Shown: positions 424-61,100 of the stretch, piece by piece | How positions within the stretch are numbered: the first letter of the stretch is position 1 | Layout of the letters: the number at the start of each line of letters is the position of its first letter | NCBI GenBank assembly: GCA_951406725.2 | Contig: OX597824.1 | Span: 71,362,001-71,426,000 of the forward strand | Length of the DNA: 64,000 nucleotides | Direction of reading: 5' to 3' | Source: Octopus vulgaris | Lineage: Eukaryota | Made by a program: the position numbers and the translations under genes | Notes under the pieces: generated by a model | Seen by the model: the letters and a program-made list of their open reading frames with translations, nothing else | What the model was told of the DNA's origin: nothing | Database searches by the model: none

Positions 424-523
424 CTTTTCCCATTCACCATCCATGACATGCCCCCGAAATTTCGCAGCAGCGGGGTGTTCCAACATACATCCAGACTCCG
501 ACATCAACAACTCCACAGTACGA
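424..523 (-). CDS. WDR26: WDR26 coding exon 2 (100 nt; end of LisH, start of CTLH domain)
   Basis: Acceptor tgcatttcAG|T and donor AAG|GTcaga. Joined to exon 1 (AA+T=Asn) it reads [34 protein letters not shown], matching the WDR26 segment I recall as [34 protein letters not shown]. Confidence 0.93.
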
Positions 524-2822: not shown

Positions 2823-3173
2823 TATATATACATATGTATATATACACATATATATATAATAGAGATTATATGTCTACATATATATATATGTATGCATACA
2901 TTTATAGTTCAGATATACGTAGACATACATGTATATATAGCTCAGATATATGCATACATATATATATATAGTCGTATAAAAGATATGTATACATACATAC
3001 ATATATATATATACGATATAAATATATGTATACATACATAATATATGTGTATCTATATATATATATATATATAATACATATATATGCATTTGTGTGTGTG
3101 TGTATACGAGTGTATACATAATCTATATAAAACTAAAATGTTTTCTTCATTCAGACAGTGGAGAGAGACTCAC

Positions 3174-3376
3174 TTCAAGCCGAGCCCACGGAGATGCTGG
3201 CCGATTAATCGAACTACGTCTTGATCCGCCTGGGACATGGTTTTCAAAAGATGTTGTCTATCTTCTAGTGTGGCCACCTCACCATTTGCCGTGGCAGAAC
3301 AAGAACCGTTCTGTCGGGAAGTCGACGCTATCTCCTCGCTCTCTCCATTGTGCTGAGGGCAGCCATTCGACTGCAT
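3174..3376 (-). CDS. WDR26: WDR26 coding exon 1 (AUG-initiated part)
   Basis: MQSNG...SQADQDVVRLIGQHLRGLGL, resembling WDR26 MQANG...[20 protein letters not shown] (LisH motif). Strong donor AA|GTGAGT at 3173; phase matches exon 2. Confidence 0.93.
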
Positions 3377-3454
3377 GTTAGCGGCTGAGACTCGTTGCTT
3401 TTTGGGCGGTGGGGGAGAAACTCCACCGTCTTCTGATTCTGAAGACGATGCCAG
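3377..3454 (-). CDS. WDR26: Putative CUG-initiated in-frame N-terminal extension of WDR26 (26 codons)
   Basis: Open frame (L/M)ASSSESEDGGVSPPPPKKQRVSAAN directly upstream of the ATG. CTG context is gcaAttCTGG (A at -3, G at +4). No in-frame ATG back to the in-frame stop at 3596-3598. Confidence 0.6.
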
Positions 3455-3468
3455 AATTGCCGGATTGC

Positions 3469-3489
3469 TTAAGTAATTTGTTGTAGCAT
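3469..3489 (-). other. Short uORF (MLQQIT*) in the WDR26 5' leader
   Basis: ATG CTA CAA CAA ATT ACT TAA, weak context (T at -3, C at +4), out of frame with the CDS, ending 14 nt before the CTG. Confidence 0.45.
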
Positions 3490-3699
3490 TAATATCGCTG
3501 ATCAGTCGGACCCCTTTTCCACTATGTTTTTTTTTTCTTTGTTGTTGTTTGGTATATTGTGATGATGGTGTTGGTTGTTGTTGTTGTGGTGATTGTTATA
3601 TTGGGGTTTGTTGTTGCTCTTGTTATTTGTGTTGTTTGAGTGAAGACAAGCTCCGACCAGTGCGAACACAACACAAGTTGGTGACCAAATTTGTTTTGC

Positions 3700-3745
3700 T
3701 CGATGACGTCAGTAGCAGTAGAGCATCATGGGAAATTCCATGTCC
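3700..3745. promoter_or_regulatory. WDR26 proximal promoter motifs
   Basis: Perfect CRE palindrome TGACGTCA at 3704-3711. GGGAAATTCC (kB-like) at 3730-3739 overlaps a Staf/ZNF143-like TTTCCCATGATGC on the minus strand. Lies just upstream of the CAA-rich leader. Confidence 0.5.
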
Positions 3746-6369
3746 TTAATTCCCCCCTCTAATAAAAACTTGTATGTGTCTCCCCCGATTTAAATTGATT
3801 TTTTTTCAATAAAGACCTTCTTATCCATTTTTCACTTGGTATTCTATTATTTCTGATCTCTAATGTCATGTATTTCTATTTTCTTTTCCCTGTCTGTTTC
3901 TCTGCCTCTCTGTCTTTTCCCTCACTCTCTCTCTCTCTCTCTCTCTCTACGTTGTCGCCAGTTCTCAATGCCGTTTTAATTTCAGTTCATACATACATGC
4001 ATACACACATATATAGGTGTACACTTGTGCGCGCGCACACATTCACATATATATGTGTGCCCGCGCGCGAGTGTGTATGTGTATACCTATACACACGCAC
4101 AAATATATATATTTATGTATGTGTTGATAGATACATGCACACTCACACACACACATATATATAGTCGCAATATGCATACATTTATATATCTATCTATCTA
4201 TCTATCTATCTATTTATCTATCTATATATATATATATATATTATGTATATGTGTGTGTATTCATCTTTCGTACACACGCACCTATGTGTTTATATAGAGG
4301 TTATAGCTCTGAGAATGGTTTTCCTTGGCGAGGGTTTCTCCACGTTTTACGCATGACTTATCTTCCCTTAGTTTGAAGCCTAATCCGATGTCATCTGGAT
4401 CAAGCATATTTATAAATACAGATGTAAATATATAACCTCGTATACAGTTGAATTAGTATTTAATCTTGAGACATAAGGCCAATTAATATAGAGAAGTAGG
4501 AGCCTAACTGAATATGCAGGGCCTCTTATATTACTGGTATTATTTTTATCGACCTACTTCTAGGGTATTGAAAGATAAGATCGTTTCTGTCTGGATTAAA
4601 GTCACAAAAAGATAAGGTCGCATTTAGATACCGTGAAATTAACGAAAAGACTTCTCAATTCGCAGTCTTTTCTTTTGTATATTTCGATCGATCTATTTTG
4701 CGATCATTTCAAGGTATCATATCTGTATACGTATCTATCTATCTATTTATCTAGCTAGCTAGCTATCTCTTTTAACTTCCCCTCTCTTTCTATCTTGCAC
4801 TTTTTCACCCTCTCTCGCTTTCTCGTTTGTGTGTGTCTATTAATTTATAAATTAGATTAACTATTTATCCTTTCCGATATGTGTGTGTGCTTGTATATCC
4901 TTAAGTATGATTTGAAGTTGGGAGGTGAGAGGATTTTAGAACAGGAGTAATAATTTTACCACCTGAAGACGATCGAATAAATCACCGACCGAGATATTGA
5001 GTGAAAGAAGAACATGAGAAACGAAGTTAATAGTTCAGAATTTCTTAATTATGATAGCAATAGCTTATCTAAATATACCATTTAGCTTGCTTGGCACCTT
5101 ACCATGTCAACTAGTGAGAAGGTTGTTACCTACGTGGTCGCTTAAGTTGCAAGAAATAGCAGATGCATCAGCCTCAAGTCACACCCAACGTTTTCAACTA
5201 AGAAAATACAAAACAGAAGACGTTAAATAAAGAAGTCATATACGATCCTAAAAAGATAGGATGGTCACATTTGGAAGCCCTTTCGGCAAGCTTCTGTTTG
5301 GGCTAACCACTAACAACTAACGAAATTAATGGTTATAAAGGGAATTAATAGATTCTCTCATCGGCGAAAACACTCTTTCTTCTCGAAAACAGACAAAAGT
5401 TAAAATCGTCCTTGGCGAAATTTGGAATCAGAATATAGTGGGGCGAATGTAAATTGTTATCTAGCTATCCTCGCTAACTTGGTTATCTATTTATTTTTGT
5501 CTTTTTTTATGCAGTTGACGTTTCCTTTTTCCCGTTTACTTGAATATAATAACGTACATGTTAGTGGTTCTCTCATTATTAATCCACCAGCAAAACAGTT
5601 AGGTCGAAACCTGTCACGAGTTGTCTCCCGTATTTGCCGAAATATCAGGTCTGTTTGTGTATCCCTACAACAGTCGTTCTTTTAATTTATGATCTTTCCA
5701 AACTTTGGCATAATACCAGCAATTTTGGCTGATGGATTAGTCGATTACATTGACCACAGTGTTCAACTGGTACTTATTTTATCAATCCCCGAAAGAATAA
5801 AAGACAAAATCGACCTAGGCGGATTTCGAACTCGCATTGTAGAGTTGGAAGAAATGCCGCTAAGCATTTTGCCAGCTCGCCACCTTGTTCTTTTAATTTA
5901 TATGTTCATACTCATTAGCCATTGCAGAAGTCACAATTTGGCTATTTGATTGCTGAAATCTTTCCAGACTGAGACATGCCTCCGTACTACTAAACATTAT
6001 ACATACATCCCACTGCAGTTGATATTTGATCAATTTCATTTGTGATCTTTCGAATTATGTACGTATAATGGCGGAAAATAAAATGAAAAGGAACAGAACA
6101 CGTACAGTTTTCACACATTATGTATATCCAAACGATACATAATTTATTTCCTTTCACTGTGTAGTCCGTTATTATACGTACATAATACGAAAGACCGTTT
6201 ATTTAATTAATGAATTTTTGTTGTTTAGATATTGCCTGTCCTCACCACTGAAGATATAATTTTAATTCAAGTTATTTAGTTTATAACATCAAGTATGATC
6301 TCACTCATTTATTAAAATAATATTAGTTAATGAGATAATGGTGACTTTTCTTCACCGCATAATTGTGGA

Positions 6370-25495: not shown

Positions 25496-25560
25496 TAAAT
25501 ACATAAAAAATATACACACAGTATACATGTGAATATATATATATATATACATCCTCTTAA

Positions 25561-26507
25561 TCTCAAGCTGTACCTCGAAATAAAGAGGTCAGATCCTGTA
25601 CACTATAGATCTCTATTGCAAGCAGACCTGGACACAATGCAGCAGTGGATCATGGACTGGCAACTCAAGCTGGCTGTGGACAAATGTACCACCATGCATT
25701 TTGGGAGGAGAAACCCAGCGTCCACCTACTCCCTCCACAACACTAGTCTCAAAAATTCTTCATGTGAACGTGACCTGGGTGTTATTGTCGACAGTGATTT
25801 GCATTGGACAAAACACATCGCTAAAATTGTCAAGAAGGCTGAGGGTGTCTTGGCATCACTCACCAAATCCTTTGTGAGCCACTCTCCGACTATCTATCTG
25901 CGGCTTTATATAGCTTTGGTTAGACCCCACCTGGAATTTGCATCACCGTTCTGGAACCCCCATCTTGCCCAGGATATCAATCGTTTGGAAGCTGTTCAGT
26001 GACGTGCAACCAAAAGAATACCCTCCATCAGGCTTTTGCCATATCCTGAACGCCTTACTTCCCTGGGCATGGACACATTGAAATTCCGACGTCTGGCAGC
26101 TGACTTGGCAGACACCCATAAAATCATCAACCATCGTACAAACAATAACTCTGAGCACCTTTTCAAACTCCACCTGTCTAACACCCGTGGACATATTTAC
26201 AAAGTCAGAAAACAGCACAGCTCCCATGACTTCAGGAAACATTTTTTCAGGCTGAGAGTTGCTGAAGCATGGAACAAACTGCCGGCATCAGTTGTTAGTA
26301 GTCGGAGCACTGCATCCTTCAAAACTTCCGTGCTTTCTGAGATTCGCAAACACTACACCTGATTTTCTCCCCTCCATACACACACAAGCATGTATCTGAC
26401 TCATGCATTGTTCGCTTTCCAGACATTTATACATTACTGCATATACTCCGACAAGTTGTGGTGCACCTGAGCACTGTATACAATAATTTCATTATATTAT
26501 ATTATAT
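25561..26507 (+). mobile_element. 5'-truncated CR1/Jockey-group LINE (RT C-terminus plus 3' UTR)
   Basis: ORF motifs LQADLD..QW..WQLKL...KC, ERDLGV, LVRPHLEFA, FF.LRV...WNKLP; one in-frame stop near 26000; (attat)n tail; TSD atacatcctcttaa on both sides. Confidence 0.9.
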
Positions 26508-36262: not shown

Positions 36263-37973
36263 TAGGGTGGAGCAGAGAGGACTGACGTTTTTGAAAAACT
36301 CACAAAATCATTAATTTTAGCTGCAAACAAATTTTATTGACATCAATATGTTCGGCCTGGATTAGCATTTGTCAAAATCAAGTGTGGAAAACAACATCCA
36401 TCACGTGGTATCCGTTTTCATTGATGCATTTCTGAAGGTGTTCTTGGAAATTAGCCTCCACTTTCTCCAGCATTGATGTAGATTTGGGCAACTTCCATGC
36501 GAATAACTTCCTTCATATTGTCCAATGTATGGGGCTTATGCACATGCACACATGCCTTGAGGTTCCTCCACAAGAAATAATCACACATGGACAAATCAGG
36601 AAACCGATGGGGTGAGGGAATGCCATCAAGCCTGGAAATGAGGCGTTCACCGAAGAGAGGGCGAAGAACCTCCATCGATGTTCTGGCTGTGTGAGTCGTC
36701 ACCCCATCCTGCTGAAACCACGCACGTCGAACAGGCATACGTTTTCGTCGTAATTCAGGCATATAGAAGTTGTTTATCATCTCAATGTAACACTCAGAGT
36801 TCATAGTAACAGCATTTCTATTATTGTCTTCAAAAAAGTAAGGACCAGTGACGGCAGCTTTTCCAACAGCACACCAGACTGTCATTTTGGACTGTGTGGT
36901 GGTCTTTCGTGCAGTTCTCTCGGATTTCCAAAAGCCCAATAACGACAGTTCTGTCGATTCACCATGCCACTGAAATGAAAATGAACTTCATCACTCATTA
37001 TCAAAATGAGGTTGTCATTTGCCTCAAAAATTGCTTCCATCTGACATGCGAAGTTAAGCCGCTGTGCATAGTCCTGTTGTCCAATTACCAATTTGTACGG
37101 GTGGAAATAATAATAATGAAATTATCATGCTTGCGTGTGTATGGAGGGGAAAAAATCAGGAGTAGTGTTAGTGAATCTCAGGAAGCATGGAAATTTTTTA
37201 AGGATGCAGTGCTCCGACAACTAACAACTGATGCCGGCAGTTTGTTCCATGCTTCAGCAACTCTTAGCTTGAAAACATGTTTCCGAAAGTCATGGGAGCT
37301 GTGCTGTTTTCTGACTTTGTAAACATGTCCACGGGTGTTAGACAGGTGGAGTTTGAAAAGGTGCTCTCAGAGTTATTGTTAGTAAGATGGTTAATAATTT
37401 TATGGGTGTCTGCCAAGTCAGCTGCCAGACGTCGGAGTTTCAATGTATCTATGCCCAGCTAAGTAAGGCGTTCAGAATATGGCAAATGCCAGGTCTTCAT
37501 GCAAATGAATATATGCAAATGCAGGTCTTCATGCAAAATACGCCTACCGATCAATTACTGATGGCAAGTTCAGTGGAATGCCTCCGAGCAGAGAGATTCG
37601 GACTCCGTATCAAAGCTTGTCTGACGCATTCCACATTTTCCAGGATCCGTACCGTTCGTGATGTCCTCACCAGTCTCCTATTCATTAGTGTACCAACGTA
37701 AGATTGTGTTACGGGTGGGAACAGTCTGATTTTGGTGAATGTTGAAGTGGCGCCGAAATTCATGCTGAACTATTGTGACAAACTCGTTATTCTTCACGTA
37801 ACTGTCATAGGCAAAGGTGATGCTGTATCGTCCACAGTGGCATAGCTTCACTTGAAAAGGAATAAAAATGCTAAGATACCCCGGACCGAATGGTACCTGA
37901 CGGACATGTGTCCCTCCCACTGGAGCTGAGTAATAGCCATTTCAAAAACGTCCATCCTCTCTTCTCCACCCTG
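36263..37973 (-). mobile_element. Tc1/mariner superfamily DD41D transposon, pseudogenised
   Basis: TIRs (y)agggtggag.agagagga..gacgtttttgaaa, TA TSDs. Transposase fragments SDEVHF..G.VNRQNCRYW, WFQQDG and PDLSMCDYFLW, with 41 residues between the 2nd and 3rd Asp. Frameshifted and interrupted by a LINE. Confidence 0.88.
37104..37490 (-). mobile_element. CR1/Jockey LINE fragment nested in the DD41D element
   Basis: Reverse complement of ~26035-26390. Confidence 0.88.
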
Positions 37974-48599: not shown

Positions 48600-49824
48600 T
48601 TAGGTTGTCAAGTTTTTAACCTTTAAATTCAGATGCACATATCTCGGCTCAAACAAAACTTTATTAATCGAAATAAACACCATCAGAATCAACACACTTT
48701 TGCCAATGTGAAACAACTTTATTTATGCCAGTAGCGTAAAAATCCTGCCTTTTGGTGGCGATGAAGTCGTTGAAGGCGTATTTGCCATCGTCTTGGTTTT
48801 GAAGCATTTCTCATGCAGGAAGTTGTCGAGATGCTTGAAAAAGCAAGAAGTCTGGTGAGTATGGCGGATGAGGCAGAGTTTCGTAGCCCAATTCATTCAA
48901 CTTCTGCAGGGTCAGTTGTGTGACATGTGGCCGAGTGTTGTTGTGGAGAAGAATTGGTCTTTTTCTATTGACCAATGCTGGCTGTTGTTCTTGGAGTTTC
49001 TTACGTATTTCATCCATTTGCTGACAGTACTTCTCCGCTGTAATGGTTTCGCCTGGATCCAAAAAGTTGTGATGGATAAGACCGGCTGCAGACCACCAAA
49101 CAGTCACCATGACCTTCTTTTGGTGCAACTTTGGCTTTGAGAAGTGCCGTGGAGCTTCATCGGCGTCCAACCACTGAGCTGAGCATTGCCGGTTGTCATA
49201 AAGAATCCACTTTTCATTGCAAGTCCGGCTGAGAAACGGGTCGTTCTTGTTGTGTAAAAGAAGGGAAGATGACACTTTAAAACAGTGTTTTTTTTGGTTG
49301 TCATTCAATTTGTGCGGCACCCATTTCTCAAGTATTTTTGTTTTTCAAATCTCTTTCAAGTGGTTGGAAATTGTCGTATACGTTATGTCTAATTCAGAAG
49401 CAAGCACTCAAACAGTTGTACATGGATTGGCTTCAACTTAGGCTCTTAGCTGATCGTTGTCAACATCCGATGGTCAACCACTATGATTGTTATCTTCAAG
49501 ACTCTCGTCACTGCAACACAATTTCTTGAACCACCATTGTGCTGTATGTTCATTAGTGGTTCCTGGGCCAAACACATCATTGATATCGTGAGCTGTTTCA
49601 GCAGCTTTTTGGCCTAGCTTGAACTTTTTGTCCATGTTGTATTTAATGTTCCAGAAAAAATGGCCTAATTATTCAAAAAGAAAAAGAGTAACATGATTAG
49701 ATAGAGCAAAAAATGGGATTTAAAATTATATATAAAGTCAAAGTAATTTAATGGAAATTAATTTGAAAATACAACATTTAAAAGCAAAATTTAAAATTCC
49801 ACAAGAACTTTCTTGACAACCTAA
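48600..49824 (-). mobile_element. mariner (DD34D-type) transposon, pseudogenised
   Basis: TIRs ttaggttgtcaag / cttgacaacctaa. Motifs WVPHKL, EKWILYDN, HNNTRPH, HPPYSPD. Catalytic Asp residues mutated; frameshifts present. Confidence 0.9.
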
Positions 49825-58175: not shown

Positions 58176-61100
58176 AAGGCTCCCCCTCGAGTGCGGAAGC
58201 ACGAAACAAAATTCCTTGTAGTGGCTTCAGAATATAAGGTGGATACCAAATCACCAAAATGGCACACAATATGACAAATTAAAACAAAAATTTAAATAAT
58301 TTAAATAATACTCAAATGAACAAAGTTCAATTAGTATCGTAACTGTCACTGGGAAGTCAATTAAGAATGTCAAATATAAATTGTCTTTGAAAGTTTCATT
58401 GGCCAGTGAACAGTTCTGCCTGACCTCGTAACATAAGGTTTGTTCGAGGCGGGCTGCGACGACGAAGGTGGTGTTGCCGATGTTGGTATTGATAAAGGTG
58501 CATGTGTAAATGGTGGTGTTGTCGAAGGTTCAACGATGGTTGTGGCAGTGGGGTCATCAAAAGATGTGGACACCTCAAAATATGCCCTTTTAAGACGATC
58601 TACGGAGACGGTCTCCGAACGACCATTAATGTCAAGTTTGAATACTTTCGACGTGCGGGAAATCACATGAAAAGGTCCTTTATAAGGAGAAACAAAAGGT
58701 CCTTTGACAGTATCATCACGAACAAAAACATGTGTTCAAGAATCAAGATCTGATGGCACATTAGAAGGAGGATTTTGGTGTCGGGGACCCATAGGAGGAA
58801 GGTCAGAAAAATATCTGTGTAGTCGAGCAACATAAGACTCTAAATTAAGAGACTGTGACTTGTCTGGCACCAACATCGTACCAGGCAATGCCAGTGTGGT
58901 ACCATACAAGAGATCGGCAGAAGAAAAACCAAGGTCTGCTTTAATCGCAGGACGATAGGAAGAAATTCAGTCCATGACTGTGGATTCGGCGAGGCATGCA
59001 ATGCAATGCAATGCCTGTGGAAACGCTCCACCATCCCATTAGAAGCGGGATGGTAACTAGTGGTGCGTATATGATGCATCCCCAGGATTCGTGATAACTC
59101 ATGAAATAAAACCGCTTTGAATTGTCGACCACGATCTGTGGTTAAACTGGACAGTACACCATACCTAGAAATCCAATTAGACACGAAAACTTTCGCAACA
59201 GTTTCAGCAGAAATGTCTGCTATAGGAATAGCTTCCGGCCAACGTGAGAAACGATCGATACAAGTTAAAATATATGAGAACCCGCAGCTCAGAGGCCATG
59301 GTCCAACCAAATCAAAGTGGACATGGCAAAAACGGGCCTCAGGAGAAGGAAACTGTTCAAGTGGAGCACGAACGTGTCTATGGACTTTAGCACTCTGGCA
59401 CTTTAAACAAGAGCGTGCCCAAGAGGTAATCGATCGTCGCATATTGGGCCAGAAGAACCGAGCAGTAATAAGCTTTACTGTGGCAGAGATACTCGGATGT
59501 GACAATGAATGAAGAGCATCAAAAACAGAACGTTGATGTTTCTCAGGTACTAACGGCCTGGGTGAACCGGTGGAGACATCACAAAGAATAGAGCCTTCTG
59601 CTGAAGGGAGCGGACGGTAGGCAAATTTACAATTGATAAACTTGGGCGAAGTTAAATTCAACTCCGCTAAAGATGGTTGATCCTGCGAAATAGCAGTTAA
59701 GTCAATTGCTGCCGGAGAGGAAATGGAATTGACAGGGAGTCTAGAGAGAGCATCAGCTGGGACGTTCTCCTTCCCTGGCACATGTCGAATGTCACTTGTA
59801 AACTGAGAAATATAGTCCAGATGACGGAAAGCACGAGGGGAGAGTTTATCCATTTTAGAAGATAGTGCAAAAGTAAGGGGCTTGTGATCAGTATAAATCA
59901 CAAACTCTCGTCCCTCGAGCTGGTGCTGAAAATGCCGAACTGACAGATAGATCGCTAGTAACTCTCGATCAAAAGTACTATATCTGCATTCAGCAGGCTT
60001 TAACTGGCAAGAAAAGAAAGCCAAAGGTTTAGTTTCACCATCTACGGTGTGCTGCAAGACAGCGCCAACTGCAGAATCTGATGCGTCCACAGATAAAGTA
60101 AGTAGAGCATCAGGAGCCGGATGTGCTAAAACAGGAACTGAAGCTAGTTCCTTTTTAACTAACTCAAAGGCAGACAGTGCTTCAGCTGAAAGAGTAAGAC
60201 GGGCGTCCTTTTTAGAATTGCCCTTTAGCATCTGCGTTAAAGGAAACAACTTGTCCGCACACCGGTTTATGAAGCATCGATAGAAATTAACTATACCCAA
60301 AAAATGGCGAAGTTGATGCAAATAAGAAGGTGGTGCGATGCGCTGAATTGCTTCGGCTTTAGACAAGAGTGGTTTGATTCCACTCGAATCAATATAATGA
60401 CCGAGAAAATCAAGAGATGATTGCGAACACCATAGACGCGAAGACGCTGAAAAAGCTGAGACAAGTGCTGGAGATGATTTTCATGCGTATCACTTGCGAT
60501 GAGAATATCATCGACATACGCGAAAACAAAATCAAGTCCACGAACAACTTCATCTATAAAACGTTGGAATGTACTAGTGGCGTTCCGCAAACCAAAACTC
60601 ATGTATAGAAATTTGAAACAACCAAAAGGAGTGGTAATTGCCGTTTTAGGAACATCGTCTGGGTTGACAGGTATTTGATGATAAGCACGTATGAGGTCAA
60701 CCTTAGAAAAAATGGTACAGCCATGAAGATTCGCTGAAAAATCATTGAGATTCCTAATTGGATATCTGTCCGGAATCGTCACAGAATTTAGACGCCGATA
60801 ATCTCCCACCGGGCGAAAATCTGTATCCCCTTTTCAAACTAAATGAAGGGGTGATGCTCATGGACTGGTGGATGGACGTATCAGACCAAGCTGGAGCATA
60901 TGCTCAAACTCAGCCCTAGCCGTTTTAAGACGGTCAGGTGCAAGACGCCGTAGGCGCGAAAAAGCAGGCGGCCCAGTAGTTGTAATAAAATGGAGTGTCG
61001 AGTGTAAGAGTTTTGCCATTTTAAAGGTAATATCAAGTAGCTCTGGAAAAGAAGCCAAAAGAGAATGAAAAACATCTCCAGAAGTAGCAACAAAAAATGT

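Follow-up and report, generated by a model that had tools for sequence, protein, structure and literature searches.

WDR26 locus and transcript

The window, i.e. the whole stretch of 64,000 nucleotides of Octopus vulgaris DNA analyzed here (contig OX597824.1), contains on its minus strand the first exons of WDR26, a part of the protein-degrading CTLH/GID ligase (Table 1). From its ATG, exon 1 is 100% identical to the annotated Octopus WDR26 (P0001), 12 of 13 WDR26 exon matches lie in order on the same contig (C11), with one weak match elsewhere, and the protein of a close relative (P0048) matches human WDR26 with an E value of 1e-272. A LisH-CTLH region followed by a WD40 propeller, with WDR26 as the best match, identifies the gene as a WDR26/Gid7 orthologue. 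Upstream of the ATG (3376-3374, context AAC-ATG-C) and in frame with it lies the segment (L/M)ASSSESEDGGVSPPPPKKQRVSAAN, headed by the CTG at 3454-3452 in the context gcaATT-CTG-G. The peptide and its start are as given in the preliminary description, which named no strand; we inspected both strands and found no such frame on the plus strand. The predicted CUG-started form has the N-terminal peptide ASSSESEDGGVSPPPPK, and the two predicted forms lie 2.6 kDa apart on 64.7 kDa.

Table 1. Features of the 5' region of octopus WDR26, in positions of the window.
Feature	Position	Strand	Support
WDR26 exon 1 including 5' leader	3174..3714	-	Read depth, molecule ends at 3681, contig, splice ends, donor GT
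WDR26 exon 2, LisH region	424..523	-	tblastn, acceptor AG, spliced reads
TGACGTCA palindrome at transcript 5' end	3704..3711	.	Also 126-153 nt above CTG in 4/5 other loci
In-frame TAA bounding the open frame	3596..3598	-	48 codons above CTG
Six-codon out-of-frame uORF (MLQQIT and stop), weak context	3469..3489	-	Ends 14 nt above CUG; position not shared by other loci
Kozak-type context GCA ATT, A at -3; G+4 is position 3451	3455..3460	-	A-3 and G+4 in 6/6 DNA loci
CUG, putative near-cognate start codon	3452..3454	-	Sequence; CTG in the same column in 5/5 other loci and human mRNA
26-codon putative N-terminal extension (M)ASSSESEDGGVSPPPPKKQRVSAAN, about 2.6 kDa	3377..3454	-	pN/pS 0.30 over codons +1 to +21 vs 0.95 upstream
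Acidic Ser tract SSSESED, predicted CK2-type sites	3428..3448	-	S/T-x-x-D/E in 63/69
Ser-Pro, predicted proline-directed kinase site	3413..3418	-	S/T-P just ahead of the basic motif in 42/69
PPKKQRV, predicted classical monopartite NLS	3389..3409	-	K[KR]x[KR] in 66/69
Annotated WDR26 ATG, A-3/C+4	3374..3376	-	Start of P0001, P0041 and P0043

Transcription over 3125-3900 was followed in four of the 24 listed runs, three raw RNA runs which share one species label, possibly that of a close relative, and one contig set. All reads of the stranded run X21 have the direction expected of minus-strand RNA, with a depth of 124 across the CUG, 9 at 3671-3696 and below 1 at 3697-3722 and with five molecules ending at 3681, while the X1 contig equals 3174-3714 without any difference from the window. 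RNA 5' ends thus lie at about 3681-3714 and the extension is covered unspliced, which places the CUG inside exon 1 of the spliced mRNA, about 230-260 nt below the 5' end. Neither of two conditions under which the extension had been expected to fail, a transcription start below 3454 or an upstream spliced exon supplying an in-frame AUG, was encountered: the 5' ends are well above 3454, and the only splice seen in the four runs is that from 3174 to exon 2 (523 downward), for which loose ends match in each run, with no upstream coding exon. Loose ends at 3574-3599, the commonest of them at 3592 (30, 18 and 35 reads), were considered as the trace of such an exon and rejected; because they sit in a triplet repeat without an AG acceptor and at a local depth spike, we read them as belonging to another transcript. 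The 5' leader also holds a long AAC-rich repeat (3540-3640), and the three raw RNA runs carry a one-base insertion at 3625, above the in-frame stop, which leaves the extension unaffected.

As had been described, the leader sequence contains no in-frame ATG between the TAA and the CTG. The single ATG in the leader (3489) is out of frame and weak, and in 5000 dinucleotide shuffles of the 338-nt leader the mean number of ATGs was 4.1, with at most one in 2.7%. Frame length was rejected as evidence, since an open frame of at least 26 codons is at chance level (2189 of 5000 shuffles); a strong-context near-cognate codon without an ATG appeared in 190 shuffles, and together with K[KR]x[KR], a pattern chosen post hoc, in nine. 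What decides in favor of the extension, in our judgment, is its conservation across species and not the open frame.

Conservation of the extension in DNA

A metagenome scan reduced 192 pattern matches to five loci, of which L004 is bivalve-like, L005 annelid-like, and L006 and L007 unplaced; L007 and L008 are near-identical, so the six DNA loci including the window represent five distinct taxa. No further locus was found among 28 genome-contig and 59 viral-contig candidates. All five other loci, six with the window, have CTG in the initiator column, flanked by A-3 and G+4, together with the peptide, in agreement with the conserved near-cognate start that the preliminary description had anticipated. 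The selection below dN/dS of 1 that it had also anticipated is visible as well: pooled pS is 0.74 and pN 0.22 over codons +1 to +21 (pN/pS 0.30), compared with 0.73 and 0.69 over codons -21 to -3 (pN/pS 0.95), calculated ungapped over ten pairs with L008 left out. The leader DNA alignment misplaced the promoter region, and this alignment did not enter the counts. Among 13 invariant-residue columns downstream only one keeps a single codon, while the Leu codon is always CTG. Frameshifts or stops in other cephalopods, named in advance as evidence against the extension, are absent from two cephalopod-type proteins, P0048 and P0049, which keep it intact. A strong in-frame near-cognate codon, coding-type conservation that begins at it and a place in mature mRNA are what characterizes a conserved non-AUG extension, and all three were observed here.

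It could be argued that the stretch is kept as an untranslated DNA or RNA element, as it lies near a conserved promoter palindrome and a short GGUGG/CCACC hairpin is predicted in four of five loci. We regard this as extremely unlikely, given that differences are mainly synonymous, length changes keep the frame in all rows, folding z-scores range from -1.9 to +0.7, and a peptide from the human extension has been detected (PMC5834625; this and the other papers are cited from the accessible parts of their texts). Two further candidates were dropped. A conserved uORF is not apparent, upstream ATGs being present in all six leaders at differing places and frames. We do not claim that a downstream hairpin helps initiation at the CUG (z-scores -0.94, 0.29, 0.66, -0.73 and -1.87), because the GGUGG/CCACC stem, at +27, comes largely from Gly and Pro codons.

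The CRE-like TGACGTCA palindrome is present in all genomic loci with enough flank (L004:691, L006:1330, L007:637 and L008:1341); the fifth, L005, holds just 89 nt upstream. It is followed by AGCAAAACAA in octopus and L004. Of 102 redundant ORFs from gene callers, 55 show its footprint (DVT or [MVL]TS) at 28-61 codons above Leu, and MTS stands at or near the start of the arthropod models P0172-P0174, P0126, P0144, P0149, P0151 and P0250. These starts are probably an ATG that overlaps the promoter palindrome, and such AUG starts may be annotation artefacts.

Orthologue rows and position of the start

Three database searches and one profile search with cluster look-up gave 346 proteins, a set without plant or fungal sequences. 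The LisH pattern was found in 337 of them, 191 with PP-x(0-2)-[KR][KR] above LisH and 146 without it, most of the latter beginning at the AUG. With at least 20 residues required upstream, 164 proteins remained, which were dereplicated to 69 rows including octopus and anchored on the basic motif only; the rows are related, so counts from them are not independent. Entropy is 3.55-4.02 bits per column at -21 to -3, 2.2 at -1 and 0.30 at the Leu column, a step at columns -2 to 0. The Leu column has Leu in 66 of the 69 rows and Met in none, two of the three exceptions being aligner-shifted fish rows; Gly+9 is kept in 64 rows and Arg/Lys+20 in 66. The residue at -1 could be encoded by an A-initial codon in 60 of 69 rows against a background of 39%, and in 55 it is Ser, Thr or Ile, residues that are unlike each other and share A-initial codons; Ala stands at -2 in 36 rows and a residue with a G-initial codon at +1 in 65. 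On sequence grounds, the biases at -1 and +1 are the Kozak context seen through the genetic code. The CUG itself was read from DNA in five invertebrate taxa and human; elsewhere, the cnidarian and arthropod start codons included, it is represented by Leu in predicted proteins.

These counts bear on a second alternative, in which translation begins further up and the Leu is an ordinary conserved residue. Residues above the Leu are conserved within vertebrates (at an ACG start), pancrustaceans and hexacoral-like rows, an in-frame ATG is present 19 codons above the CTG in L007/L008, in the weak context T-3/C+4, and octopus has weaker in-frame near-cognates at 3505 (CTG, C-3/A+4), 3502, 3493 and 3457. 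However, CTG is kept in six of six loci and in human while synonymous sites nearby have reached saturation, in L004 a stop in the same frame lies four codons above it, cross-phylum conservation stops two codons above the Leu, and the window and L004-L006 lack an in-frame ATG above the CTG. A higher start is accordingly judged very unlikely, and initiation at the CUG remains our reading: the octopus extension is very probably translated from it. The start may nevertheless differ by lineage, since vertebrates conserve the ACG 8 codons above the CUG, pancrustacean rows share a motif upstream of the Leu and the apparent start of hexacoral-like rows lies 7 codons higher. The pancrustacean motif, (F)HHG, lies 5-9 codons above Leu (P0063, P0168, P0169, P0200, P0207, P0224, P0230 and P0256); its CAT-GG would hold an out-of-frame AUG, or else it may mark a higher start. 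In some rows, namely P0192 (Labeo), P0110/P0123/P0185/P0114 and P0341, the first residue is an M or V that falls exactly on the initiator column; here either the codon has turned into AUG or GUG, or the gene caller has so rendered a near-cognate start.

The same material can be read to mean that invertebrate WDR26 functions mainly or solely in its CUG form, the AUG form being minor, with no regulated switch between two forms. The extension is under very strong constraint and the annotated AUG is without G+4 in all six loci; on the other side, five of six have a purine at -3 of the AUG, every one of the 68 orthologue rows has a Met further on (the first one 23-73 residues after the Leu column), and in human the longer band is the minor one (Ivanov 2011, PMC3105428). 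We find this quite unlikely and keep to two forms made from one mRNA.

Range among animals and the human extension

Among 112 new proteins 68 carry the motif, and 42 of the other 44 begin at or below the AUG. Named carriers include many fishes, shark, newt, birds and pangolin and, among arthropods, mayfly, termite, Timema, thrips, moth, scorpion, several crustaceans and ostracod. Other carriers were placed by their AUG part among molluscs, annelids, priapulids, echinoderms and cnidarians: P0052 is 100% identical to Ridgeia over 70 aa, P0076 100% to Asterias over 81, P0124 93.5% to the octocoral Paramuricea over 62, P0002 92% to Saccostrea, P0060 92% to Trichonephila and P0062 77% to Priapulus. 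Four full-length carriers group with Paramuricea (99/94) in a 46-row tree, which was used for placement only because cnidarians joined vertebrates there. A profile made from 20 invertebrate rows retrieves the extensions of fish, shark, amphibian, bird and mammal. The 26 residues have no match in Pfam, and an Atlas search gave only LisH look-alikes, below 0.9. Conservation across bilaterians, as proposed in the preliminary description, thus holds, and the range seems even wider with the cnidarian-placed carriers. All queries contained the extension, so carriers are over-sampled and losses uncountable. About ten upstream-bearing fragments are without the motif (P0131, P0132, P0135, P0140, P0148, P0153, P0156, P0161, P0167, P0270 and P0279); several resemble one insect group, in which an intron may lie above the AUG. 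The named mollusc, brachiopod, annelid, priapulid, echinoderm and hemichordate entries all begin at the AUG, as expected if AUG-only annotation misses the segment, and some vertebrate and arthropod database models already contain it.

The vertebrate extension with a similar segment, which the preliminary description had mentioned, is real: Ivanov 2011 (PMC3105428) lists, in its supplement, an ACG/CUG extension of WDR26 that is shared by species from human to fish, the longer, minor human band being seen on a vendor blot. The human WDR26 mRNA given there has ACT-CTG-GCC and then ASASSSSDSDTGGASPPPRKKPR; read by eye, Ser/acidic-GG-SPPP-RKKPR follows the CUG, the same motif as in octopus. Zhu 2018 (PMC5834625) detected the extension peptide ASAAEGVGEPGASAGR by mass spectrometry, noted "one strong Kozak CUG and one strong Kozak ACG" and found that the peptide fell after EGFR inhibition with the canonical protein constant. 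According to this literature the human extension is translated, and according to Fedorova 2022 WDR26 is among the genes for which GENCODE v35 annotates neither a near-cognate form nor an intact extension. The octopus and vertebrate features agree in gene, CUG position, A-3/G+4 and the AUG form downstream (PMC3105428, PMC5834625) and share the Ser/acidic tract, GG, SPPP and K-K-x-R; they differ in length, 26 codons in octopus and about 90-100 in human, and in the second start, ACG, 8 codons higher in human.

Ivanov 2011 (PMC3105428) also reported an AUU extension in Drosophila, absent in mosquitoes, and concluded independent origins, whereas the motif is here traced through many invertebrate phyla. 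From the sequences compared, the octopus and human extensions are a single ancestral feature, which did not arise within vertebrates and is much older than the literature has it; its origin likely lies before cnidarians and bilaterians split. What looks new is this deep ancestry and the reading of the motif as a phospho-flanked classical NLS, the human ACG/CUG extension being already known. We found no report of the motif in invertebrate WDR26, or of an NLS in the extension, in the literature consulted, mostly non-subscription papers; the word "nuclear" does not occur in the main text of Ivanov 2011, and the accessible parts of PMC13082882, PMC11840829, PMC12687426, PMC3464593, PMC3797097 and PMC11933467 do not mention the extension.

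Basic motif and the nuclear reading

The core consensus of a classical monopartite NLS is K-(K/R)-x-(K/R), and that of CK2 sites is S/T-x-x-D/E. The former is present in 66 of the 69 extensions, its last R/K not being imposed by the anchor pattern, and the latter is found in 63, no more than 14 residues above the prolines. K[KR]x[KR] occurs nowhere in the 570-aa AUG form of octopus. The resemblance of PPKKQRV, with its acidic Ser tract and SP site, to an SV40-type NLS, pointed out at the outset, is therefore upheld as a conserved pattern with a predicted function. As in the CcN-type signal of SV40 large T antigen (PMC3022542), an acidic Ser cluster lies about 10-15 residues above a Pro-Pro-Lys-Lys cluster and a phosphorylatable residue adjoins the prolines, and CK2 phosphorylation above the T antigen NLS speeds import 50-fold. 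Unlike there, the protein is an unrelated one and the WDR26 module would sit in an optional non-AUG segment, with import and phospho-control predicted. Given translation, the basic motif is probably a nuclear localization signal.

A different role for a CUG-translated motif is docking or self-inhibition, for example by plugging the acidic pore of WDR26's own propeller as YPEL5 does. The propeller binds short basic motifs in disordered stretches which overlap NLSs in NMNAT1 and HBP1, and the N-terminus of YPEL5 mimics them (PMC7616709); moreover, the acidic tract and GG are conserved as much as the basic residues, beyond the needs of a minimal NLS. Those degrons, however, need a bulky aromatic residue, and their consensus G/K-R-x-aromatic, with the aromatic two places after Arg, is found in none of the 69 extensions, as judged by consensus, while an SV40-type NLS in place of the NMNAT1 motif kept the protein nuclear and was poorly ubiquitylated (PMC7616709). 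We consider docking rather unlikely and retain the NLS. Of related interest, YPEL1, YPEL2 and YPEL4 are on the same vertebrate-wide non-AUG list (PMC3105428), and their paralogue YPEL5 binds WDR26.

KKKKR stands just before LisH in the AUG forms of both vertebrates checked (P0189, P0236) and in none of ten invertebrates, so that invertebrates are likelier than humans to show a clean division between nuclear and cytoplasmic forms; together with the nuclear signals that other CTLH subunits carry (PMC3797097), this means that import may not depend on the extension. WDR26 has nuclear substrates, nuclear NMNAT1 being one of its targets (PMC7616709), and nuclear high-order CTLH complexes require WDR26 (PMC11659599). 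A PDB search gave a single WDR26 sequence, a chain of 645 residues that would, by its numbering, fit the AUG start. Onea in 2022 reportedly dealt with nuclear and cytoplasmic CTLH, which may bear on the nuclear reading.

Our preferred explanation, which we consider likely, is that the CUG with its 26 codons starts a longer WDR26 by leaky scanning and that PPKKQR provides a predicted import signal absent from the AUG form. Scanning ribosomes would bypass the weak uORF or reinitiate, some of them beginning at the CUG and the others at the AUG. Importin-alpha would bind the basic motif, CK2-type and Ser-Pro phosphorylation would tune import, and a minority of long subunits would help to carry the WDR26-CTLH ligase into the nucleus. 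They would do so because WDR26 dimerises and links CTLH cores (PMC7616460). It is known in general that non-AUG extensions can add localization signals by leaky scanning (PMC3105428), and the arrangement here, a strong-context near-cognate above an in-frame AUG, is alike. Most described examples are limited to mammals or vertebrates, unlike that of WDR26, which appears to reach cnidarians. A deeply conserved non-AUG start is that of EIF4G2/NAT1.

More tentatively, and with somewhat more doubt than belief, we suggest that one CUG start with a phospho-flanked NLS may have been kept since the cnidarian-bilaterian ancestor and may set the amount of nuclear WDR26-CTLH. If true, few conserved non-AUG starts would be as old, the stringency of start-codon choice would be a direct control on protein degradation in the nucleus, since the CUG start would set the nuclear ligase amount, and reconstitution work done with the AUG form would have missed this switch. 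In any case the published view of a vertebrate feature with a separate origin in flies is to be revised, the 26-codon octopus version indicates, in minimal form, what evolution has retained of the long human extension, and invertebrate WDR26 gene models, most of which omit the extension, are likely truncated. In Skraban-Deardorff syndrome, which is linked to WDR26, it may be worth looking at variants of the human 5' leader.

Elsewhere in the window, transposon-like ORFs without a Pfam match lie at 36454-36987 (minus strand) and 25499-25999 (plus strand), a Transposase_1 fragment (Pfam) lies at 48814-49344 (minus strand), and an LTR-retroelement pol with reverse transcriptase, RNase H and integrase domains in two frames occupies 58843-60833 of the minus strand.
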